Shown: positions 3,736 through 27,039 of the stretch, piece after piece
How positions within the stretch are numbered: position 1 is the stretch's first letter
Layout of the letters: each line of letters starts with the position of its first letter
Virus record (IMG/VR): IMGVR_UViG_3300025846_000006
Span: 1 to 40,055 of that record
Strand: one strand, 5' to 3'
Origin: a virus
DNA length: 40,055 nucleotides
Position numbers and translations under genes: made by a program
Notes under the pieces: generated by a model
The model's input: only the letters and a program-made list of their open reading frames with translations
Databases searched by the model: none
Told to the model about the DNA's origin: nothing

Positions 3736-5037
3736 CTAGCCAGTAGCAGCGAGTTTGAGTCTGACGAAGGCCTGTGCGTCGATAGGACCACCGTCAGTGA
3801 ACTTGCGACCAATAAAGCCAACCTTGGAGTTGCGCGCAAGGAGTTCGTTCAGACGCTGGATGGTCACGTCCATCAGATCAGCGATGAAATAACCCTTGTT
3901 CCAGTTAACCAAGGCGCCAAAGTACAAACCCGCGGTGAACGTGTTCGGAGAATACTCGCTCTCGTCTACAGGGAAGCCGTCGATTGTGTCAGCGACACCA
4001 GCGATGAGTGAAGGCTGCCACATGTAGCTGCCGTTGACCGCATCTTTGAACAAATAGATTTTCGACAGAGCATCAGTACAGAGAAGCCAGCGAGCGCCCG
4101 AACGATAGGCAGGACGCAGCATGAATCGAGCTGCACGCAGGATGTCGGACGTGAATGCCGTTGTGGTCGTAGCAGTAGTACAGTCACGACTAGTCGGGAT
4201 AGCGCCCGTTCCAGAGGTGGCGAAGATACCGAGAGGCTTGCCTGAGCCGTCGCCGGTCAGATATGCCTTCTCTTCAGCGGCGGCGAACTTTGCCGCCATA
4301 CGGTCCCTGACGATGCTCTCAGGAGAGAGAGCAGCCGTCCGCAGGAGCTTCATGCTGACGTCGATCTCCTTCGTCAGCTGCTGCGGCTTGAAATCGCGCT
4401 CAGTGAGCACGGCGCTCTCATCGGGTACGATCGTCCCGACTTCGGGCGTCCAGTCGGCATCCGCGAAATCCGTAGTCAATGCCGGGAAGCCGATGGAATC
4501 CGAGGTTGTGACCGGGACCACCTGGGCATAGCGACGGACAAACACCTCAGCATCCACAGACTGGAGGAGCTTGGCAACCCACTGGACAGGAGCATGCAGG
4601 TATCCGCCGTCGGCATCCACATCGTTGGCAAAGGCCGCGGCAGTACGCTGCTCACCCATGAGATACTTCCTGAAGAACTTACCGAATTCTTTAGTTGATC
4701 TGCGCTGGAACTGAGGGTCTGCCTCTTCGCCAGTCAGTTTGATACCACGGTACTCTGCCGTCACGCCGGGAACAGCGTCACGCTTGCTCGGGTCATCCTT
4801 GCCCCCGGCGATCGTGTCACGAGCCTCGTTTAGACCAGCCTCTTCCGCCTGCAACCCCAGTTCGCGGTCGATCTGATCCTTGAGCTTCCGGGCATCGGTG
4901 AGCATGGCATCATACTGGCCCTTTTCCTCACCGGACATGTCCCTCTTTTCTTTGAGGGGAAGATCGTTTAGCGTACGCGCCTGACCAACAAGGCCAGCTC
5001 GCTTCTGCGCCAATGCATTGAGTTCTGTAACAGTCAT
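3736..5037 (-). CDS. Major capsid protein, HK97 family (with N-terminal delta/scaffold-like coiled coil)
   Basis: 433 aa. It has a charged coiled-coil N-terminus followed by an HK97-fold-type body, and lies directly downstream of the S78 prohead protease. Confidence 0.9.
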   Translation of the reverse strand: MTVTELNALAQKRAGLVGQARTLNDLPLKEKRDMSGEEKGQYDAMLTDARKLKDQIDRELGLQAEEAGLNEARDTIAGGKDDPSKRDAVPGVTAEYRGIKLTGEEADPQFQRRSTKEFGKFFRKYLMGEQRTAAAFANDVDADGGYLHAPVQWVAKLLQSVDAEVFVRRYAQVVPVTTSDSIGFPALTTDFADADWTPEVGTIVPDESAVLTERDFKPQQLTKEIDVSMKLLRTAALSPESIVRDRMAAKFAAAEEKAYLTGDGSGKPLGIFATSGTGAIPTSRDCTTATTTTAFTSDILRAARFMLRPAYRSGARWLLCTDALSKIYLFKDAVNGSYMWQPSLIAGVADTIDGFPVDESEYSPNTFTAGLYFGALVNWNKGYFIADLMDVTIQRLNELLARNSKVGFIGRKFTDGGPIDAQAFVRLKLAATG

Positions 5038-5057
5038 ATCATTGTCCTTTCGAAGGC

Positions 5058-5717
5058 TTATCCCTCGAGATCCAACCGTTCAAGCTCTTTCCGGCGAGCT
5101 TCAGAAGCCGTGGCATAGTCAGGTTCAGTGGTGCTATCGGTTGCCGAGTGATCCTCCTGGATCGGCTCGATAATCTTCTCAGTGGGTTTGATGCTCGAAC
5201 GGTGTTCAGCCAAGATGGATTCAGCTGATCTGCCACCAATGCCGACATCGGTCGTTGGATAAGCAGGAAACGTCACCGGACTTACATCGAATAATTTGAC
5301 TTCTTTGAGGGTGCGAATCGGATTATTAGGATCCGACTCATCCCACTCTTCCTGTATGGTCTGGAAGGCGAAACTCATCTGGTCCAGATCTTTTCGCTTA
5401 ACCGACACCATCAGATCGCGGCCCAACGTCGTGTCTGGCATATCGATTTCCGTGGCAAGTCCCGTGTCGTCTTCATGCAGCCTCAATGTTCCTGATTTAG
5501 TACGTCCTAGCAGATGATTGGCGTCGTGGTTGAACAGCGCCCGTACGTCGGCATTATCAGCAAGGGTCTTCTTGAATGCGCCCGGGGCAACCTTTTCGCT
5601 GAAGAAGCCCAGGTCAACAACCGTGTTAAAAACTGCAGCATGGCCGACAAGAACATGACCATCGTCGACAGCGCGAACCTCATCCAAACTAAACGTGCGA
5701 TATTCTCTGTCAGGCAT
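5058..5717 (-). CDS. Prohead maturation protease, HK97 gp4 / S78 family
   Basis: The start was trimmed to ATG 5717 (GGAGG-N6-ATG, overlapping the portal stop). The sequence GHAAVFN...GFFSEKVAPGAFKKTL....DVRALFNHD.NHLLGRT is the S78 signature. Confidence 0.9.
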   Translation of the reverse strand: MPDREYRTFSLDEVRAVDDGHVLVGHAAVFNTVVDLGFFSEKVAPGAFKKTLADNADVRALFNHDANHLLGRTKSGTLRLHEDDTGLATEIDMPDTTLGRDLMVSVKRKDLDQMSFAFQTIQEEWDESDPNNPIRTLKEVKLFDVSPVTFPAYPTTDVGIGGRSAESILAEHRSSIKPTEKIIEPIQEDHSATDSTTEPDYATASEARRKELERLDLEG

Positions 5718-7407
5718 GATGAACCTCCATGATTTGAGCCTCAATTCCCGTCATAACGTCGTTCGCAAGAGCTAAAGATGACCGATCTGCATAGAAACTC
5801 TCGACGGCAAATATCAAGTCCTGCTTCTCGGACTCTGCCCGTACGACACGAATCATCAATGCTGCCCCTTCAGACAGGCTGTAACGCCTTGCCTGGGCTG
5901 CTGAAAACAGCTCAATCGTGGCATCGTCTACACCATTTCCATTACCGAGTGCTCGGACTGTTGACGCAATGGGTGCTGAAAGTCGCTGTTTAACGAAGGT
6001 TTCAAGTGATGTAACCATATAATCGGCCAACCACGAGGAAAAGCCCTGAACGTCGCCTACTGCAAGGCGTTTCCGCGCTTCCTTCAGGACGTCCTCGCTC
6101 TCGCGCTTGGCGATGTGATCAAACGCATCCGAAAGGATGGGTTCGACGACAGAACGCCCAACCACAAAAGTGGGTGCCGGAACATCGGGCTTAGCGGGTG
6201 CCGGGGCGGGTAATGCACCAGCTTCGACCATATTCAACGGTTGCAGATAGACTTTCCCTTTGTCATCGGGCAAGGGGTTCATGTTTTCCAGGCTTCTGAT
6301 GTCATCTGCCGACATCCAGCCCCAGTTACGGGCAACAGCATAGGCGGCATACCGGCTCGCCATGTCGCCTCGCATAAAACCGTCCATCTTGAATTCGGCG
6401 AAATACTTATAGGTGGGAAAGAGCATGCGATTGAAGCCCTGCTCCAGCCGGACAGCCCATGGCATGAGAGCATCGGTCACAAACTCCATCCCCAGGTGCT
6501 CGACGTTCGAGAACGTAGCGTGCGTCAGGTCGTTGATCTTGTGCGCCGGCACGCGGAACCATCCGGCAATCTCAGACCGCTCATACTCTCTGGTTGCCAG
6601 CAGCTGCGCATCCTCGGCATTGAGGGCGATCGACTTGTATTCGAGCCCGCCATCAAGAATGGCGATCTTGTGCTGGTTATGGCCGCTGTGTGCGCCGACC
6701 CATGCCTTGGCGAAGTCGATCTTCTTTTTCTCGTCCGTCATCGGCGCGGCAGACTGCAAATACCCGCCCGGCGTGCTGTCGTTGCCGAAGAAGCGAGCAG
6801 CATAGTCCTGAGCGGCTTGGGAAAGTCCCAGCGATTCGCGTTGGATGGCGATCGGGGAATGTCCGATTAGACCGTCGAAGGACAGGCCGGGGATATGCAG
6901 GACCTGAGTGGGGTCGAGATGGCGCACGCCGGTATACGGAGAAGAAAAGGTGTAGACCAAGCTGCCAGTCGCGAAATCGCGCTGCACGGTCATCCAGTCG
7001 GGGCGAAGCGGCCACAAGGCACATGGTAGTCCGGCGTAGTTAAACTGGATCTCGGAGTAGGAGTTTCCCCACAGTAGCAAATGCTCCATCATGGTTTCAC
7101 GGTAGATGAACGATGTCATCTCGCGATTGGGCTCATCATGCAACACGTGATAGAGCGGATGGGTTGTCGCCACTGTTTTGCCGTTCTCATCGCGAATATA
7201 GACCATGAGCGGCATGCAAGCCATGGACTCTGCCAGGACACGCACGCAGGCATAGACGGTCGGGAGGTTTATGGCTGAATGCTCCGTGACGGGGACGCCT
7301 GATTCTGTCCCGCCTTGTGAGGACAACCAGTTGGCAAGGTTCTCACCAAATGCCGCTTCTGAGCGCTTGCCACCAAATACCCGCTGCATCGCTGTTTTGA
7401 TTGTCAC
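5710..7407 (-). CDS. Portal protein, HK97 family, with a C-terminal extension
   Basis: 565 aa, GTG start with AGGAGG-N4. The gene order TerL-portal-protease-capsid supports the call. The portal core pattern is YACVRVLAESMA..PL.VY. Confidence 0.9.
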   Translation of the reverse strand: MTIKTAMQRVFGGKRSEAAFGENLANWLSSQGGTESGVPVTEHSAINLPTVYACVRVLAESMACMPLMVYIRDENGKTVATTHPLYHVLHDEPNREMTSFIYRETMMEHLLLWGNSYSEIQFNYAGLPCALWPLRPDWMTVQRDFATGSLVYTFSSPYTGVRHLDPTQVLHIPGLSFDGLIGHSPIAIQRESLGLSQAAQDYAARFFGNDSTPGGYLQSAAPMTDEKKKIDFAKAWVGAHSGHNQHKIAILDGGLEYKSIALNAEDAQLLATREYERSEIAGWFRVPAHKINDLTHATFSNVEHLGMEFVTDALMPWAVRLEQGFNRMLFPTYKYFAEFKMDGFMRGDMASRYAAYAVARNWGWMSADDIRSLENMNPLPDDKGKVYLQPLNMVEAGALPAPAPAKPDVPAPTFVVGRSVVEPILSDAFDHIAKRESEDVLKEARKRLAVGDVQGFSSWLADYMVTSLETFVKQRLSAPIASTVRALGNGNGVDDATIELFSAAQARRYSLSEGAALMIRVVRAESEKQDLIFAVESFYADRSSLALANDVMTGIEAQIMEVHHA

Positions 7408-7415
7408 GATTCCTC

Positions 7416-8996
7416 CTATCCCGAGTACACGAATATCCCGGGGTTGGCCGGCGGGGCTTCCGGCGTCATGATGAACCGGAACAGTGCGTCGATTGCGGCA
7501 GCGATGCCGTCAATGCGCTTGGTCACCTTGACCTTCGTGGGTTTTATATTGCCAGCAGGATCACGGACAACCGAAACATTGTCCGCCATCCATCGAAGTA
7601 CTGGGTTACCGCCATGTGCCAATTGCTCTGACAGCATCAGGCGCTCGAATTCCTTCGATGCTGGGGATAGGCTCTTATACCCTTGCTGGACAGTGACAAC
7701 GTCCCATCCGTCAGCCATGAGCGACGTGGCGAACTGTGTAGCATTCCAGGGATCTGTCGCCGCGCCCGCGATACCGGAACAAAGAGCCTTCCGCGCATTG
7801 GCGTATGCCCTGATGAACTCGTAGTCAACGACATTCCCTGGCGTGGTGCGGATAAATCCCTGCTGCACCCATGCCTCGTAGTTCACGTGATCGCGCTCGC
7901 TGCGCCCTTTGATGTTGTCGCCAGGGATGAAGAACATCGGCACGATGTCCCAGCGCCCACCAACAACCTTCGGCTGCCAGACTTCGACGGCCGCGGCAAT
8001 ATCCGTGGTCGACGCCAGATCGAACCCGATATATCCTCGGCGCCCCTCGAGCGAGGCAATTGGAACCTTGCACTTGTCCCAGTACCCGAGGTCGAGCCAG
8101 CGCACGGCCTGGTGCACCCACATGTTGAGCCGCAGCTGCTTGAAAGCGTTCTGTTCCCCAGGGTTGTTCTCGGCCTTATGCGCCGCATCCGCAATCTCTT
8201 CCGGCTTGATGATGACGCCATAGGAGGGATTGGCAGCCTTCCAGGTCGTCTCAGCCGTCCAGTCGTCGCCTTCGTCCGCCTGCTGGATGAACACAAAGTA
8301 CGAGGGATCATCCACGTGTCCGCGGGCGATGTTGAGCGCATACTCATACTGCTCGCCGCAGATCGTCGTGTCGTCGTCGCCCGCTGTGGTGATCGCCACA
8401 ACCATTGGCTGCTCTCGCGCCATGGTCGAGGTCGTGAGAACGTCCCAGAGCATGCGGGACTTCTGCGCGTGGAGTTCGTCGAACACGATACATGAGGCAT
8501 TGAGACCATGCTTGGAACCGACCTCGCGGGAGAGAACACGGTAACGCCCGTTGTTGCCTGAACACCTGAGCTGAGCAGCGTAATGAGTGACGCGCTCCGT
8601 AAGGGCAGGCGACGTCATAGCCATATCCTTGGCGACCTCAAACACGATCGCGGCCTGGTACTCATCCGCTGCGGCCGAGTACACCTCGGGTGAAGACTCG
8701 CCGTCTGCCAAGAGATGATACAATGCTATACCCGCACAAATCTCCGACTTACCATTCTTCCGGGGCACAGAGATGTACGCCCGCCGGTAGAGTCTCAGCC
8801 CATCTGTCATACGTTTCCATCCATAGAGGTTACGAAGGACATACCGCTGCCACTCCATGTCCACTTTGAACGGCTCACCAGCCCACTTACCCTTCGTGTG
8901 AACCAGGTACTTCTCGAAGAACTCAACGGCGTAGGAGGCTGCAGCTTCGTCGAAGTAGGCGGTATCAGAGGAAGGAATTGGGTTAATAAACCTCAT
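7416..8996 (-). CDS. terL: Terminase large subunit (Terminase_1 type)
   Basis: 526 aa. Walker A-like VPRKNGKSE is present, with a nuclease half downstream. ATGA overlap with terS. Confidence 0.92.
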   Translation of the reverse strand: MRFINPIPSSDTAYFDEAAASYAVEFFEKYLVHTKGKWAGEPFKVDMEWQRYVLRNLYGWKRMTDGLRLYRRAYISVPRKNGKSEICAGIALYHLLADGESSPEVYSAAADEYQAAIVFEVAKDMAMTSPALTERVTHYAAQLRCSGNNGRYRVLSREVGSKHGLNASCIVFDELHAQKSRMLWDVLTTSTMAREQPMVVAITTAGDDDTTICGEQYEYALNIARGHVDDPSYFVFIQQADEGDDWTAETTWKAANPSYGVIIKPEEIADAAHKAENNPGEQNAFKQLRLNMWVHQAVRWLDLGYWDKCKVPIASLEGRRGYIGFDLASTTDIAAAVEVWQPKVVGGRWDIVPMFFIPGDNIKGRSERDHVNYEAWVQQGFIRTTPGNVVDYEFIRAYANARKALCSGIAGAATDPWNATQFATSLMADGWDVVTVQQGYKSLSPASKEFERLMLSEQLAHGGNPVLRWMADNVSVVRDPAGNIKPTKVKVTKRIDGIAAAIDALFRFIMTPEAPPANPGIFVYSG

Positions 8997-9526
8997 TTCT
9001 TCTTCCTCTCAGGCGGCTTTGACGTCGGCGGCCTGAATGGATCAGCGGATGCCTGGTTGTTGGAAACGCCAAAGTTGGGTTTTGTAGATTCCGGGACTTT
9101 GATACCGGTTCTGGCCGACGGCGTGAAGCCCATCTCGCGTGCTGACTTCATCATCGCATCGTGATAGGTCTTCGAGATATTGACCCAGGGAGAGACCTGT
9201 TCAGCGCAATACCCATGCTGGCCGGTAATGATCACGGTCGGACCTTCTCCATTCGGTGGCATTTCAAGATGCTTCTCGGCTTGACGCCAGCGAGCGTACC
9301 CTTGGCAGTACGAAGACAGGACTGCTCTGTCGACGGACGTCAGAAGGCCGGGAACCTTCGAGAGGATCGTGATGACTCTGCGCCATTCTGTTTTTGCCTC
9401 GCCCGTCAGCCAATTGGGGCAACTGATGACTGCGGTCTCGAACTTCGGCTCGTTCAGGTTCTTGATGCGCCCACTACCGAGCTTTTTCAGGGAAGAAGGC
9501 ATGGCTTTCGGGCCTCTTCTACCCAT
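8993..9526 (-). CDS. terS: Terminase small subunit, P27 family
   Basis: The start was trimmed to ATG 9526 (AGGGG-N8-ATG). The N-terminus MGRRGPKAMPSSLKKLGSGRIKNLNEPKFE and the segment W..V...L......T..D...L..YC are typical of the P27 family. Confidence 0.85.
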   Translation of the reverse strand: MGRRGPKAMPSSLKKLGSGRIKNLNEPKFETAVISCPNWLTGEAKTEWRRVITILSKVPGLLTSVDRAVLSSYCQGYARWRQAEKHLEMPPNGEGPTVIITGQHGYCAEQVSPWVNISKTYHDAMMKSAREMGFTPSARTGIKVPESTKPNFGVSNNQASADPFRPPTSKPPERKKK

Positions 9527-11761: not shown

Positions 11762-12061
11762 TCAGCACCCATTCGCAAAACGGTCTGTAACTCTGACGAC
11801 CTTGGCCTTTCCTGTCTTTACCTTTCGAAAATCCTTACAGCTCGAGCTAGAACATACAGATTCCGGCGGCCACGGGACCTCTGGCTGGCACACCTTCAAA
11901 TTGCAACTCCGGGACAAGCGAACGCACCAACCTTCGCCCTCAGGTTCAGATCCATCTTCACGCTGCTGAGCCACGCGCGAAACGAGCTCTTTTTGCATTA
12001 CGTGTGGAAACAGCTCGCCGACATATCCTTCGTCAACAACTTTCACGTCTGAGTCGTTCAT
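11762..12061 (-). CDS. Hypothetical protein, paralogous N-terminus (VDEGYVGELFP) with 13053..13259
   Basis: The start was trimmed to ATG 12061 (ATGA overlap). It shares the GYV.ELFP motif, and the DNA segment tggaaacagctcg, with 13053..13259. The tail is Cys-rich. Confidence 0.5.
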   Translation of the reverse strand: MNDSDVKVVDEGYVGELFPHVMQKELVSRVAQQREDGSEPEGEGWCVRLSRSCNLKVCQPEVPWPPESVCSSSSCKDFRKVKTGKAKVVRVTDRFANGC

Positions 12062-13056
12062 GCCTCTACCTCTGCCCCGACGTATTCCTTGCACTTCATG
12101 CGTGGCTTGTCACATCGGATAGGTCCAACGCATTGCTCACAGTCCGTTCCAATGAGCTGGCACTTGAAGCAGAGACAGCCGTTCTCCAAGCAATGCTGTT
12201 CCTTGCCTTCTTCTGTGCGAAAATCAGGACAAGCGCCGATCTTGCCGCCGGTGCCACCGATCTTCTTACAACGCTCGAACCCCTTGCAGTCGTGACAGCT
12301 CTTGCCCTCGTTGGCACAGGCAAGGCAGAGGCAATCGGAACAGTCCCACAGCATCTTGCCCGCGGAATACCATTTGCCGTCCAGGAGCACAGCGATCGGC
12401 TCTTTCACAGGCTTGACGGCCGGGGCTAGAATCGCCAACCGTTCTTCGTGCTCTTGCTTCCTCGATTCAAAACCTAGGCGTTCAATAACGTGGTCGGCTG
12501 GAAGTTCCGAAAGCAACCGGTCTATTGCCACGATGTCAGAGCGCAGAAACTGCATCTCCTGGTCATTCTTGGTGAATGGAGCAGGAGCTGGTTCGAGCTT
12601 TGGCTTCTTCGCCTTGACCGGCTTCTTCGTAGGTTCGATGGCAGGAGCTGGTGGGACAGCAAGCCAGGCGAGGTACGGCCCATAAGTGCAGTGAGGGTTG
12701 TCGCCATATGGGCTCCAATATTCGCAGGTGCTTCCGTTACAATGCGCACTGTTGAAATAGGCGCAGGGATGGAGCTTGAAAAAACGGATGCAGTGGATTT
12801 CCTCGCGTGGTTCGCTCCGGATGCATTCGTCACAGGGAAGATGGTTGCGGATAGCGTTTCCCGAGGCACAGTAGTACCACTCCTTGCTGAAGTCGAGACC
12901 CTCGTCCTGGCTAGATTCGATCTTCGGGACTGGCTGACGGAATGCCGCGCCCGCGAAGGTATCCACTGCCTTGCTCGCCCAAGGAGCTGCGACTAGCGTG
13001 ATCGGCTCATCGAACAGAGAGCCACACCATCCCGTATCTTTCGGCTGAGGTCTCAT
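12058..13056 (-). CDS. Cys-rich 332-aa protein of unknown function
   Basis: ATGA overlaps at both ends. There are two Cys-dense regions (CDECIRS..HCIRFFKLHPCAYFNSAHCNGSTCEY and DCSDCLCLACANEGKSCHDCKGFERC...CLENGCLCFKCQLIGTDCEQCVGPIRC). They are separated by a Pro/Lys linker and a helical segment. Confidence 0.6.
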   Translation of the reverse strand: MRPQPKDTGWCGSLFDEPITLVAAPWASKAVDTFAGAAFRQPVPKIESSQDEGLDFSKEWYYCASGNAIRNHLPCDECIRSEPREEIHCIRFFKLHPCAYFNSAHCNGSTCEYWSPYGDNPHCTYGPYLAWLAVPPAPAIEPTKKPVKAKKPKLEPAPAPFTKNDQEMQFLRSDIVAIDRLLSELPADHVIERLGFESRKQEHEERLAILAPAVKPVKEPIAVLLDGKWYSAGKMLWDCSDCLCLACANEGKSCHDCKGFERCKKIGGTGGKIGACPDFRTEEGKEQHCLENGCLCFKCQLIGTDCEQCVGPIRCDKPRMKCKEYVGAEVEA

Positions 13057-14803: not shown

Positions 14804-14995
14804 TTATTTACGGACATGACCCGCCGCCTCGAAGACAACTCTGTCGGCCCACTCAGCCTTTTTCCCCTTGTTCCACTGGGAAACAGGCCTCAGATAGCCA
14901 ACCACACGAGAGTAAACTTCCGTCCTGGTGCGCTTGGCTGCCGGGATGATGACACCGTTGTCCAGCTGGAGATCACCGTTTGCAAGTTCAACCAT
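14804..14995 (-). CDS. Stand-alone NrdD C-terminal (glycyl-radical loop)-like mini-protein
   Basis: 63 aa counted from ATG 14995 (GAGGTGG-N6-ATG). EVYSRVVGYLRPVSQWNKGKKAEWADRVVFE matches the conserved class III RNR C-terminal motif (R.xGYL....wN.GK..E...R), which carries the radical glycine. Confidence 0.6.
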   Translation of the reverse strand: MVELANGDLQLDNGVIIPAAKRTRTEVYSRVVGYLRPVSQWNKGKKAEWADRVVFEAAGHVRK

Positions 14996-15260
14996 AGGGT
15001 GCCACCTCACTGATGTCCGCTCCGCAGTTGGCGCAGACCATCGGGTTCTGATGTGCGAACTCTGCCGGGTCAATGAACCCACCTGGAGACCGATAGCCTT
15101 CCGGCTTGTCATCGATCGGGCGATGCCAGAAGTTGATACGCCCGCATTTTGGACAGCCGGTAGCTTTCAGACCAACATCTGCAAGTGTCGATTGCCGAAA
15201 ACGTCCACCGCTACCTCGTGCAATAATGTGTCCGTTTGATGCTTTGTAGGCTCGGTTCAT
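14988..15260 (-). CDS. Zinc-ribbon protein (CPKCG...CANCG), translationally coupled to the NrdD-like ORF
   Basis: 90 aa with two CxxC pairs. An 8-nt overlap (ATGGTTGA) links it to 14804..14995. Confidence 0.5.
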   Translation of the reverse strand: MNRAYKASNGHIIARGSGGRFRQSTLADVGLKATGCPKCGRINFWHRPIDDKPEGYRSPGGFIDPAEFAHQNPMVCANCGADISEVAPYG

Positions 15261-19376: not shown

Positions 19377-20183
19377 TCATGGCGTCTTGCCGTCAAGCGA
19401 TAGCATCGCCTTTGGGTACTGCTGGATCGTCTTACCATCCGGCCAGAAGTGTGACAGACTCTGCTTCTGGAACAAGGGGATACCATGCTGCAGTGCCTGA
19501 CTGCTAAGATCATAGACCCAGTCCGCCTTTGGCTGCCGGTTCTTTGACCCGGGTCCAGTCATCGCGCCGATCACCAACCAGTCGATGGTATCTCCCCAGT
19601 CCATGTACGGGGCAATGTCCTCGAGGAGGGGTTCTGCTGACGCCCAGGTATGCCAGCCTTCCTCATGGAGTGGCCACAGGTGATCGCGGAAGGTACTCGT
19701 GTCGTTTGCCGTGTCGAAGGTTGCACCCAGCCACCAGTTAGCATGGGGTTTGATCTTCTGCTGGTAGATGAACAGGCGCTCGTACCTCTCCGGGTTCTTG
19801 GTCAAAAACAAATACTGATGCTGCGGGGCTGCTTCACATGCCGCAAGCACCTGATTGATCCACTCGTCCGAGACCCAATCGCCGAACAAGTCGGCCATCG
19901 AGCAGACGAAGATGCGCGACGGCTTCTTGACCCACAACGGCTCACTCAGGCGGTAGCTGTGGAGCGTCGGAGCAAATCCATACTTCCATGCTCCGCCGTT
20001 GCCGACCATGTGTCTGATTTCGTGAAGGCCATTGCCCGGTTGGGTGCAATCGTCCCAGTTGTCAGTTTCCTTAGGAGTGAATCTCTGCGCCATTCGGCGG
20101 GCGTAGCAGTAGTCACAGCCGTGCTGACAGCCCGTAACCGGATTCCAGCTGTATTGCGCCCAGTCGATGCGTGTGCGGTTCAT
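19377..20183 (-). CDS. Gp37/Gp68 family protein (DUF5131, three-Cys motif)
   Basis: 268 aa. The N-terminus RIDWAQYSWNPVTGCQHGCDYCYARRMAQRF is the family signature. Confidence 0.8.
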   Translation of the reverse strand: MNRTRIDWAQYSWNPVTGCQHGCDYCYARRMAQRFTPKETDNWDDCTQPGNGLHEIRHMVGNGGAWKYGFAPTLHSYRLSEPLWVKKPSRIFVCSMADLFGDWVSDEWINQVLAACEAAPQHQYLFLTKNPERYERLFIYQQKIKPHANWWLGATFDTANDTSTFRDHLWPLHEEGWHTWASAEPLLEDIAPYMDWGDTIDWLVIGAMTGPGSKNRQPKADWVYDLSSQALQHGIPLFQKQSLSHFWPDGKTIQQYPKAMLSLDGKTP

Positions 20184-20726: not shown

Positions 20727-21051
20727 TGTCGGCCTCCTTCGGGGCTGGTTCAATGGAAAGGCCAGTATTGCAATGGCGGTTCACAATGTCTTGCCGCGTC
20801 AGTTCATCAACCGGGATATGCAACCTGTCGAACTCGGCAAGAATCCTTCCTGGCGTTCCTTCGCCAACGATATGCAAAAAGTATTCAATCCAACAATGGA
20901 ACAATGCTCCTACCAATCGAGCGTTGTCCCCACTCACGGTTTTGTAGAACTCATGTGTAGCGGCGGACGCTCCTTTCATCACGCCGTCTTTGACAAAGTA
21001 CCAATCTGATTTTGGCAATGGACGTTCGTCGGCATATTTCCTGCTGCTCAT
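20713..21051 (-). CDS. Hypothetical protein
   Basis: 112 aa, ATGA overlap upstream. Confidence 0.55.
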   Translation of the reverse strand: MSSRKYADERPLPKSDWYFVKDGVMKGASAATHEFYKTVSGDNARLVGALFHCWIEYFLHIVGEGTPGRILAEFDRLHIPVDELTRQDIVNRHCNTGLSIEPAPKEADSEVH

Positions 21052-21338
21052 TTCCCTTCCTCCTTCACCTTGCGCTCGTAGTACCTAATCTGCCGCTGGA
21101 AGCGACGAATATCAGTACGGATGTTCTTCTGCTGCAACGCAGACTGGTACAATGGCTGTGGGAGCTTCGCCTTGTCTTCTTTGAGCCACCGCCTCACCGC
21201 TCTCAGCCGACTCGCGTATATGGTCTTTTTGTCGAATCCACCGCAGCAGTTGCACTTGACGCAAATCTCGCCATACGAGTCGTAGAGGTTCCAGCAGTGC
21301 TTATCGACCTGCTGGTCAAGGAAGATGTGGCCGTTCAC
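21048..21338 (-). CDS. Cys-rich protein with a basic helical C-terminus
   Basis: 96 aa counted from GTG 21338 (GTGA overlap). Contains HCWNLYDSYGEICVKCNCCGG. Confidence 0.5.
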   Translation of the reverse strand: MNGHIFLDQQVDKHCWNLYDSYGEICVKCNCCGGFDKKTIYASRLRAVRRWLKEDKAKLPQPLYQSALQQKNIRTDIRRFQRQIRYYERKVKEEGK

Positions 21339-21682
21339 TTTGGCACCTCTCCTATTGGCAATCGTACAACATTCACGCAACCTGCGCTGTCAATACAGTC
21401 GCCAAATCTCCAGTGCAATTCTTCTCCATTGTCTCTGCATAAACAGCAGTTGCTACAACTGCGAAACTTACCAGCACGACAGCCATCGCAGAGTTTGCCA
21501 CAATGACCGAGGCTACCCAGTGTGCATCCGCAATCATCGCCATTCGAGAGTCCGTCGAGGTTGTTTCGTGTCAGAAAATCGACGACTTCTGTCTTCAGCT
21601 GCTCTTGACTATCACACTCCCGGCCAGCGAGTTTTGCCAGCATCCAGATATCTGTCACACTGACTGCTACGGCGCCCGTCAT
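21335..21682 (-). CDS. Cys-rich protein
   Basis: 115 aa, ATGA overlap. Contains DDCGCTLGSLGHCGKLCDGCRAGKFRSCSNCCLCRDNGE. Confidence 0.55.
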   Translation of the reverse strand: MTGAVAVSVTDIWMLAKLAGRECDSQEQLKTEVVDFLTRNNLDGLSNGDDCGCTLGSLGHCGKLCDGCRAGKFRSCSNCCLCRDNGEELHWRFGDCIDSAGCVNVVRLPIGEVPK

Positions 21683-26088: not shown

Positions 26089-26309
26089 TTGCTGCCGTGG
26101 GGCATTAGTAGCTCGGGTTTCTTTTCCTGCTCCATGATCTTCTCTCGCTCAAGTTTCTCCAAGACTGCAACCTCTGAGAAGCTGGACCTGTTCCAACCCC
26201 GATGATGCACACACCAATCTCCGACCGCCACTGTCGTGCTTGTGTTCCAGTGGATCACCAACTTTTCTCTCGCCGGTTTCTCTTTCAATGCTCGATCAAG
26301 ATAGCCCAA
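26073..26309 (-). CDS. Ribbon-helix-helix protein, ParG-like centromere-binding candidate
   Basis: 78 aa, TTG start with GGAGG-N6. KLVIHWNTSTTVAVGDWCVHHRGWNRSSFSEVAVLEKLE fits a beta-strand, helix, G-x-(S/N), helix layout. It lies directly downstream of parA. Confidence 0.5.
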   Translation of the reverse strand: MGYLDRALKEKPAREKLVIHWNTSTTVAVGDWCVHHRGWNRSSFSEVAVLEKLEREKIMEQEKKPELLMPHGSKEARG

Positions 26310-27039
26310 GGGTGACCTCCAGTTCAGCCAGAAATGCCTTCCACGCCAGCGATACCTTCTCCCTCGGCGCGAACTCCCATACCGGCTCAGGTACGTCCAG
26401 CGCCTGCGTCACTCGAATGCTCGAGGGGATGATCGTGTCGAAGACGGCGGTGTCATACGTATCGTGAAGCATAACCGCGAAGGCCTTGGCATACGTTGTC
26501 CTCTCCTGGACGGCATTTAACAGGAGACCAGCAATCCGTAGGGAGGGGTTTCCATTCTCGCGAACGAAGATGACCTTGTTAAACAACCGCTTCATCGCGT
26601 CCTTGTTGAATTTGTCCGGGCGTACTGGAATGAGGACACAGTCTGCAGCGATGAGCGCGTTCGTGACCATAAGACCAAGGTGCGTCGGCGTGTCGAAGAT
26701 CGTCACCTGGTGGTCAAGTCTGGCGAGCAATTCACGGAGGCGAAAAGACCTTTCATAATCGGGATTCGCCTCGTATTCTCCCAAGGTATCGTCGCTACCG
26801 AGCAGATCCAAATTGAGAGTTACTGTCATAGGGGTCGGAGCCGCGACCTTCGGGGCGAAAACCTGTGTGATGCTATGTTCTTTTGGCAACTCCTGAGTCA
26901 AGAGACCGGTCAAGTTTGCCTGATCGTCCAGGTCAATGGCGAGCGTCGTCTTTCCCTGGGAGGCGAAGTAGCGGGCGATGTGATAGGCAATCGTTGTCTT
27001 GCCTACACCCCCTTTTAAGTTGCAGACGGCGACCTTCAC
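26296..27039 (-). CDS. parA: ParA/Soj-type partition ATPase (small, type Ib-like)
   Basis: 247 aa. It has the deviant Walker A VCNLKGGVGKTT and LAIDLDDQAN. The GTG start overlaps the upstream stop. Confidence 0.9.
   Translation of the reverse strand: MKVAVCNLKGGVGKTTIAYHIARYFASQGKTTLAIDLDDQANLTGLLTQELPKEHSITQVFAPKVAAPTPMTVTLNLDLLGSDDTLGEYEANPDYERSFRLRELLARLDHQVTIFDTPTHLGLMVTNALIAADCVLIPVRPDKFNKDAMKRLFNKVIFVRENGNPSLRIAGLLLNAVQERTTYAKAFAVMLHDTYDTAVFDTIIPSSIRVTQALDVPEPVWEFAPREKVSLAWKAFLAELEVTLGLS

Follow-up and report, generated by a model that had tools for sequence, protein, structure and literature searches.

A free-standing glycyl-radical segment of anaerobic ribonucleotide reductase in a tailed phage, a probable copy of the small subunit of a two-piece enzyme in Caldisericota

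In cyanophages the labile D1 protein is supplied by psbA, an auxiliary metabolic gene of host origin, and among the phage class I ribonucleotide reductases (RNRs) a split NrdA is reportedly found in Aeromonas phage Aeh1. NrdJa/NrdJb of Pseudomonas aeruginosa is cited as a split class II RNR (PMC9669993). In glycyl radical enzymes the backbone is cleaved by oxygen at the glycyl radical, and GrcA/YfiD (E. coli) and Y06I (phage T4) serve pyruvate formate-lyase (PFL) as autonomous glycyl-radical cofactors; according to a 2026 review such spare-part proteins are known for formate lyases only, the other family members being undetermined in this respect (PMC13450708). Here we report on a 63-amino-acid (aa) open reading frame (ORF), called the tail below, in the IMG/VR virus record IMGVR_UViG_3300025846_000006 (positions 1 to 40,055; this whole stretch of 40,055 nucleotides (nt) is referred to as the window). 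The tail encodes a free-standing glycyl-radical segment of NrdD, the class III (anaerobic) RNR, and probably represents a phage-borne copy of the small subunit of a two-piece host enzyme. It resembles GrcA/YfiD and Y06I in being a small free-standing protein with a glycyl-radical loop, for which activation by the activase of the parent enzyme and action in trans would be expected, and differs from them in that its parent is a class III RNR and not PFL, and in having no PF01228 homology. The literature searched gave no account of a class III RNR that is split, or of an autonomous NrdD radical piece, nor did it contain the phrase 'split nrdD'; this search was incomplete, and a prior description is possible.

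The tail protein, MVELANGDLQLDNGVIIPAAKRTRTEVYSRVVGYLRPVSQWNKGKKAEWADRVVFEAAGHVRK (63 aa, no cysteines), was matched by the Pfam family NRDD (PF13597) over residues 23-55, corresponding to positions 531-562 of the 562 in the profile (E 8.3e-10; 38.4 bits, the gathering score being 26.2 bits), by TIGR02487 at positions 549-579 of 581 (E 1e-8), and by PHROG 487 (NrdD-like; E 4.6e-4). These matches bear out an earlier sequence-only reading of the window, which had assigned the C-terminal radical loop of NrdD to this ORF. NRDD was the sole Pfam family matched even at E up to 10, with no match to PF01228 (Gly_radical). The sole match in a PDB sequence search was NrdD of T. maritima (4coi), the radical glycine of which (G621) pairs with Gly33 of the tail in an alignment that is weak when taken alone (E 0.066). 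In an AlphaFold 2 (AF2) model with a mean predicted local distance difference test score (pLDDT) of 83.7, residues 28-31 and 34-37 form the strands of a hairpin whose tip holds Gly33, a helix comes next (residues 43-50), and residues 2-22 were modelled at pLDDT 88-91. The nearest structural match to this model in BFVD was the ANMV-1 protein; YfiD (6owr) was considered as a structural relative, ranked second in Foldseek at E 5.3, and was not counted as evidence. The likeness to the C-terminal segment of NrdD comprises the motif and profile segment EVYSRVVGYLRPVSQWNKGK..E...R and the predicted hairpin with the glycine at its tip, while the tail differs in being unattached to a barrel, in having no Zn cysteines, the Zn-binding Cys/His residues that precede the glycine loop being absent from the 63-aa protein, and in its extra N-terminal ELxNGDLxLxNG. 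Relative to full-length NrdD, the window is without the barrel, the Zn site and an adjacent NrdG (nrdG adjoins the small-subunit gene in the host). Neither an NrdD barrel nor an NrdG-type activase was detected by Pfam among the non-structural ORFs of the window, which were the ones scanned, and a tblastn search of the whole window with NrdG and the large NrdD subunit of Cryosericum likewise found neither, in agreement with the earlier statement that the genome has no catalytic barrel. On the strength of the profile and sequence matches, the tail is a genuine, autonomous glycyl-radical segment of NrdD.

A search of 5.8 billion proteins with the tail gave 1415 matches, and all of the best 120 had lengths of 51-93 aa and 58-97% identity over almost the whole query. 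Exhaustive searching of 1.84 billion cluster representatives with HMMER yielded 2533 matches at E<=1e-3, with lengths of 45-124 aa in all of the best 150; some of the weaker short matches may be gene fragments at contig ends. Stand-alone members of the tail family measure 57-93 aa, and such short proteins are automatically labelled 'anaerobic ribonucleoside-triphosphate reductase' in the databases. In a family alignment of 71 sequences, G14, R22, S29, R30, G33, Y34, P37, G44 and R52 were invariant, and the N-terminal segment ELxNGDLxLxNGxxIPAxKR was kept in host small subunits and phage copies. From its sequence we infer that this segment (residues 2-22) could be a docking element for the large subunit.

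A host counterpart of the tail was found in Caldisericota, where nrdD itself occurs in two pieces. When each GTDB species was scanned by way of one genome, Caldisericota alone gave full-length matches (query residues 1-57), Candidatus Cryosericum septentrionale and C. odellii among them; in other phyla the match was restricted to residues ~20-57, which correspond to the C-terminus of a one-piece NrdD. In four large bacterial contigs (L011, 797 kb; L012, 114 kb; L013, an NCBI contig of a metagenome-assembled genome (MAG); and L014) the tail homologue lies in a conserved operon with the order nrdD (683 aa), an ORF of 475-482 aa, the tail gene (64-65 aa), a short ORF and nrdG (in L012, nrdD occupies 4447-6498 and nrdG 8302-9006), and the same order of nrdD, 475-482-aa ORF, tail and nrdG was seen in L011-L014 and L018-L025. 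The 683-aa NrdD consists of ATP-cone and NRDD domains and ends in ...SVCPTHGYIAGNHPFCPKCDEELVVEAQKV...PEN, with the Zn-site residues kept (CPTH...CPKC, located on the large subunit) and the glycine loop absent; the end of the large subunit reads ...CPTHGYIAGNHPFCPKCDEEL..., with no glycine loop after it. The host tail gene has an AGGAGG site and a start codon of its own. By Pfam, the host large subunit covers positions 1-533 of the NRDD profile, the host small subunit 525-562 and the phage tail 531-562, compared with 1-562 for an ordinary Anaerolineae NrdD. Coverage of the full profile by two genes was thus seen in the host (Cryosericum and Caldiserica UBA646), and the phage holds the small piece only. 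In Caldiserica UBA646 the two nrdD pieces are adjacent, separated by a spacer of ~20 nt containing AAGGAGG and followed by ATG, because of which the split is a real two-polypeptide trait across the Caldisericota sampled and reflects neither an intron, nor an intein, nor an assembly error. The 475-482-aa ORF between the nrdD pieces (L012:6513-7961; also in L011 and L018-L025) has no Pfam match, is missing in Caldiserica UBA646, and begins with what we take to be a signal peptide or membrane anchor. An intein or intron as the cause of the host split was considered and rejected on the signal-peptide-like start of the 482-aa ORF and the ~20-nt Shine-Dalgarno (SD) spacer of UBA646.

The likely host of the phage belongs to this same group. 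At full length the phage tail is 80-86% identical to small subunits of the Cryosericum clade/Caldisericota only, and the signature AEWADR is common to the phage tail and the Cryosericum-clade small subunits. Tetranucleotide correlations between the window and every Cryosericum-clade locus were r = 0.86-0.92, compared with <=0.70 for the other bacterial and archaeal loci tested, some of which have a similar G+C content. Window positions 14862-14908 form an exact 47-nt run with a gene of the C. septentrionale lineage (L012/L023), in a setting of 67-78% overall DNA identity between phage and host tail genes. The position of the longest exact run differs among phage-host pairs, and the 47-nt run may be a tract of occasional phage-host exchange or recombination. 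These comparisons point to an anaerobe of the Cryosericum clade of Caldisericota as the likely host, which agrees with the anaerobic or facultative host that had been proposed from the window sequence.

The gene is widespread among related phages and appears to be maintained there. In IMG/VR, a survey for similar mini-ORFs found 36 loci with a full-length tail of the Caldisericota type on about 33 contigs, with no barrel gene or nrdG, and no full-length nrdD, within 6 kb. The viral tail ORFs on these ~33 contigs are intact (60-93 aa), and the tail-bearing loci have a mosaic backbone in common with the window, with Bro-N upstream and a 3D-domain gene downstream. Among phage copies of the tail, pS was 0.68 (near saturation) and pN 0.14 (pN/pS 0.21), and comparison of the window tail with individual phage relatives gave omega values of 0.06-0.16; by these substitution patterns the phage copies are under strong purifying selection. 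A close host homologue is likewise present, and on both counts the tail would class as a host-derived auxiliary gene. In a neighbour-joining tree, which is indicative (54 columns, no bootstrap), 14 of 14 sampled phage copies clustered, beside the host sequences, a topology consistent with one old capture.

We put a probability of roughly 60% on the reading that in the 63-aa ORF the phage carries a copy of the small glycyl-radical subunit from the two-piece class III RNR of its host, and that this copy keeps the anaerobic synthesis of deoxynucleoside triphosphates (dNTPs) running. During infection the phage small subunit would be expressed, with its translation coupled to the upstream ORF and served by its own SD site, and host NrdG would put the radical on Gly33. 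The small protein would then dock into the host large subunit, with the N-terminal segment and the C-terminal extension of the large subunit as the likely interface, and dNTP production for phage DNA synthesis would be sustained or raised. In a two-piece enzyme, oxygen damage would be limited to a small, cheaply replaced peptide, and this is the part that the phage copy would replenish. Since the radical-bearing piece is the one destroyed by oxygen, and presumably the one with the fastest turnover, the phage copy would act as a replaceable part. GrcA/YfiD differs in this respect, as the host large subunit deduced here ends at profile position 533, without a covalent radical domain; with no such domain to lose, the phage protein would duplicate a native subunit and not replace a cleaved domain. 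Of the rescue of oxygen-damaged host NrdD that had been suggested by analogy with GrcA and Y06I, the phage-encoded free-standing radical piece stands, and the one-piece host NrdD does not, the enzyme of the likely host being in two pieces; because the host enzyme is naturally two-piece, 'replacement subunit' fits better than 'repair of cleaved enzyme'. The split RNRs are similar in that the catalytic chain is encoded by a pair of genes and has to be reassembled from their products, the Caldisericota pair being complementary on the profile, and different in that the enzyme is here of class III, the break falls just before the glycine loop, and the phage carries the small piece only. With psbA the tail would have in common that it copies a damage-prone, high-turnover host component, with purifying selection and signs of exchange with the host copy; the pathway is another one, and as regards turnover the comparison is by analogy.

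Several points weigh against this reading. It rests on sequence comparison, models and gene context, and the Foldseek search of the tail model against PDB gave nothing significant. Activation by NrdG and function of a non-covalent glycine-loop peptide are things that we infer even for the host enzyme, and a one-piece NrdD or another RNR class may be present elsewhere in Caldisericota genomes. The host assignment is drawn from sequence similarity and k-mer usage. Position 20 is diagnostic, being A/E in phage and C/F/S in host copies, and this difference could reflect a modified function. Finally, in L008 (2281-2385) and L009 the upstream 90-aa ORF and the ATGGTTGA junction are kept and the downstream ORF is 34 aa long, starts with MVELANGDL and then diverges, which looks like a recent loss of the glycine loop; since this lineage lost the tail, the gene would be dispensable there.

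The difference at position 20 would also suit a decoy or inhibitor, in which case the phage protein would titrate NrdG or block the large subunit and thereby stop or re-time host dNTP synthesis; that the phage has neither a barrel nor an activase of its own would suit it too. All host-invariant residues, including the radical glycine and its flanks, are retained in all phage copies, however, and replication of a 40-kb phage genome needs dNTPs. We know of no precedent for a decoy of this kind, and consider it improbable.

A somewhat smaller chance still is given to a module of two ORFs, in which the tail and the 90-aa zinc-ribbon protein encoded directly upstream would jointly form a detached C-terminal domain of NrdD, or would be fused by frameshifting. 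The two CxxC pairs of the upstream ORF and its 8-nt overlap with the tail in another frame, as described in the sequence-only reading, were confirmed, the frame of the tail being +1 relative to that of the 90-aa ORF. In seven related loci the 90-aa ORF has a constant length, omega values of 0.05-0.23, and both CxxC pairs and the ATGGTTGA overlap kept; this overlap would couple translation of the tail to the upstream ORF, and single-ORF proteins combining ribbon and tail occur in the ANMV-1 virus, other viral contigs and bacteria of the candidate phyla radiation (CPR). Against a joint domain, the 90-aa ORF gave generic zinc-ribbon matches only, all sub-threshold (Pfam, TIGR), and no match to the NRDD profile, so that its proposed likeness to the Zn ribbon of NrdD did not hold up. 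It is found without the tail in L008/L009, and in most tail-bearing viral loci the gene upstream is another one. A profile search with the 90-aa alignment found two remote homologues only (P0267 and P0268, small phage proteins of uninformative annotation), neither of which has an NRDD neighbour in its phage-like contig. In the host, the small subunit is translated alone and the large one retains the Zn-site residues, and the idea of a split NrdD C-terminal domain made of both ORFs is therefore abandoned. Fusion by frameshift or by a 1-nt indel was likewise examined and rejected: the stop codon of the 90-aa ORF is kept in all seven homologous loci, and the tail frame of both L010 and L008 closes two codons ahead of the ATG, so near that hardly any room is left. 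An AF2 model of the 90-aa ORF (pLDDT 53.5) was too poor for a structure search. By its conservation the 90-aa ORF would be a real, coupled neighbour of the tail, independent of the NrdD module, and one may speculate that its conserved basic N-terminus, RGxGGRFR, serves in nucleic-acid binding.

Very little weight is placed on a phage-internal radical system, in which the tail would be activated by, for example, the DUF5131 protein of the phage on behalf of an unnamed partner enzyme. The window does encode such a protein (Table 1), with an N-terminal CxxxCxxC motif (GCQHGCDYC), and in L100, L104, L111, L112 and L132 a DUF5131 (Gp37/Gp68) gene stands 0.1-4 kb upstream of the tail, directly adjacent in L112; the protein may act as a radical-SAM partner encoded by the phage itself, or its closeness to the tail may be coincidental. 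DUF5131 is, on the other hand, a common phage gene that is lacking within 6 kb of many tail loci, it falls outside the glycyl-radical activase family and has no Fer4_12 or Radical_SAM match, and the partner suggested by the tail's close identity with the small subunit of the host is the host enzyme.

A non-functional remnant, either a decaying piece of a former phage nrdD (as had been offered as an alternative from the window sequence) or a passive scrap of host DNA, is highly improbable: a genome without a barrel and the one lineage with a 34-aa ORF in the tail's place would suit it, and it is at odds with the intact 60-93-aa ORFs on ~33 viral contigs, with a pN/pS of 0.21 at near-saturated synonymous sites, with the tail's own SD site and start codon, and with related phage loci that have no full-length nrdD. 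Just as improbable is a duplicate at the phage attachment site (attP), by which the 3' end of the host gene would be carried so that integration restores the reading frame; it would account for the 47-nt exact match to the host small-subunit gene, and is rejected because no integrase was detected in the window, where ParA is present, and because the identity tracts vary (the longest exact run shifts between pairs at 67-78% DNA identity), the gene moreover being complete and inside a co-directional overlapping array.

The positions of the tail, of its neighbour and of the other features in the window are collected in Table 1.

Table 1. Features of the tail locus and other features in the window (positions in the 40,055-nt window)
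Feature	Position	Strand	Remarks
Tail gene, predicted 63-aa stand-alone NrdD glycyl-radical subunit	14804..14995 (stop codon included)	minus	ORF listing, Pfam NRDD
NRDD-matching stretch, residues 23-55	14831..14929	minus	C-terminal end of the NRDD profile
RVVGY motif, residues 30-34	14894..14908	minus	predicted radical glycine; Gly33 codon 14897-14899
N-terminal segment, residues 2-22, ELxNGDLxLxNGxxIPAxKR	14930..14992	minus	family-specific; absent from ordinary one-piece NrdD
Overlap ATGGTTGA, 8 nt	14988..14995	minus	tail start codon over the stop codon of the upstream ORF
SD-like GAGGTGG	15002..15008	minus	6 nt 5' of the tail ATG; read off the sequence
90-aa zinc-ribbon ORF	14988..15260	minus	CPKC residues 36-39, CANC residues 76-79
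CxxC pairs of the 90-aa ORF	15144-15155 and 15024-15035	minus	
332-aa cysteine-rich protein	12058-13056	minus	many CxxC-like pairs; no Pfam match
DUF5131 protein	19377-20183	minus	
Two small Cys-rich ORFs	21048-21682	minus	
ParA	26296-27039	minus	

The window is an apparently complete genome of a tailed phage (~40 kb, 55% G+C) with almost all genes on one strand; those around the tail are all on the minus strand and form a co-directional, overlapping array. Pfam matches comprised the large and small terminase subunits, ParA, endonuclease VII, the DUF5131 protein, an IstB/DnaC-like ATPase, a Bro-N protein, a 3D-domain protein and an Rv2525c-like lysin. By ORF size, position and sequence we tentatively assigned the portal, capsid and tape measure, and a Phage_portal match was obtained at the matching position in related loci. 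With ParA present and no integrase detected by Pfam among the non-structural ORFs, the phage could either persist as a plasmid-like prophage or be purely lytic. A close relative sits on a 100-kb contig (L016), and a GenBank blastn search for relatives of the region returned only a Rha-like match in Geobacillus virus E2. Several related phages have a homologue of the 332-aa cysteine-rich protein downstream of the tail, and two more small Cys-rich ORFs are present in the window.

Three viral contigs (IMGVR_UViG_3300025600_000014, with L101 and L105; 3300025750_000007; and 3300002565_000008) each have a pair of unlike tail genes, which lie about 10.6 kb from one another in different gene contexts, and these pairs could be paralogues or assembly chimeras. 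Following the ANMV-1 protein, the next structural matches to the tail model in BFVD were A0A8S5TPU0 (69 aa), A0A8S5RZZ1 (98 aa) and A0A8S5V4E4 (47 aa), from uncultured Myoviridae, Podoviridae and Siphoviridae, respectively, all labelled 'anaerobic ribonucleoside triphosphate reductase'; from these three short proteins, stand-alone tails seem to be present in phages well beyond the Caldisericota group. In other cellular genomes, a loop-less nrdD with a separate tail ORF is apparent in a MAG of Acetomicrobium hydrogeniformans (L031, 3221-6135), where the order is nrdD, nrdG, tail, in DPANN archaea (L036, L044 and L045) and in Thermoplasmatota (L030); the separate tail ORFs of these five loci are 46-62 aa long, and sequencing error or read-through is possible.

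A second stand-alone type consists of proteins of 85-144 aa in which a CxxC...CxxC ribbon is joined to the glycine loop, with the motif KCxxCFxKDPxLxNxQ.EVYSRVVGYLRPV. Such ribbon-plus-loop proteins were found in CPR Paceibacterota (L059:5842-6102 and L066:6145-6402), in the ANMV-1 virus (L001:2677-3111; AJP62049.1, 144 aa, probably PHROG 4132), and in the viral loci L136, L151, L153, L155 and L161. In CPR the gene lies between nrdG and a full-length nrdD with its own tail, which is a true GrcA-like layout. These mini-proteins are, like the tail, stand-alone C-terminal pieces of NrdD, and differ from it by including the CxxC...CxxC ribbon (NRDD 510-562) and, in CPR, by standing beside a full-length NrdD with its own tail; the window protein is without the ribbon and is associated with a lineage in which the host enzyme is split.

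Taken in its broader form, the finding would mean that class III RNR can work when the glycyl-radical loop is provided in trans by an exchangeable subunit of 5-7 kDa, that this layout has become established in whole lineages (in Caldisericota, and apparently in some Synergistota and DPANN archaea) and that their phages have captured the subunit, making it, together with the mini-proteins of CPR bacteria and of archaeal and gut viruses, the first spare-part or autonomous radical-cofactor system of a glycyl radical enzyme outside PFL; to this wider proposition we give even odds. The tail would be the first candidate for a free-standing glycyl-radical part outside the PFL family, and clonable class III RNR candidates are at hand in the two-piece NrdD of Caldisericota and, apparently, of the cultured Acetomicrobium hydrogeniformans, in the phage copies and in the CPR mini-proteins. 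The tail gene may also serve as a marker from which the hosts of these phages can be predicted. Should the piece work in trans, the radical domain of RNR would be shown to be modular, a way for anaerobes and the viruses that infect them to deal with transient oxygen would be suggested, and a new class of viral auxiliary gene would be added in the peat, permafrost and lake-sediment systems of Cryosericum.

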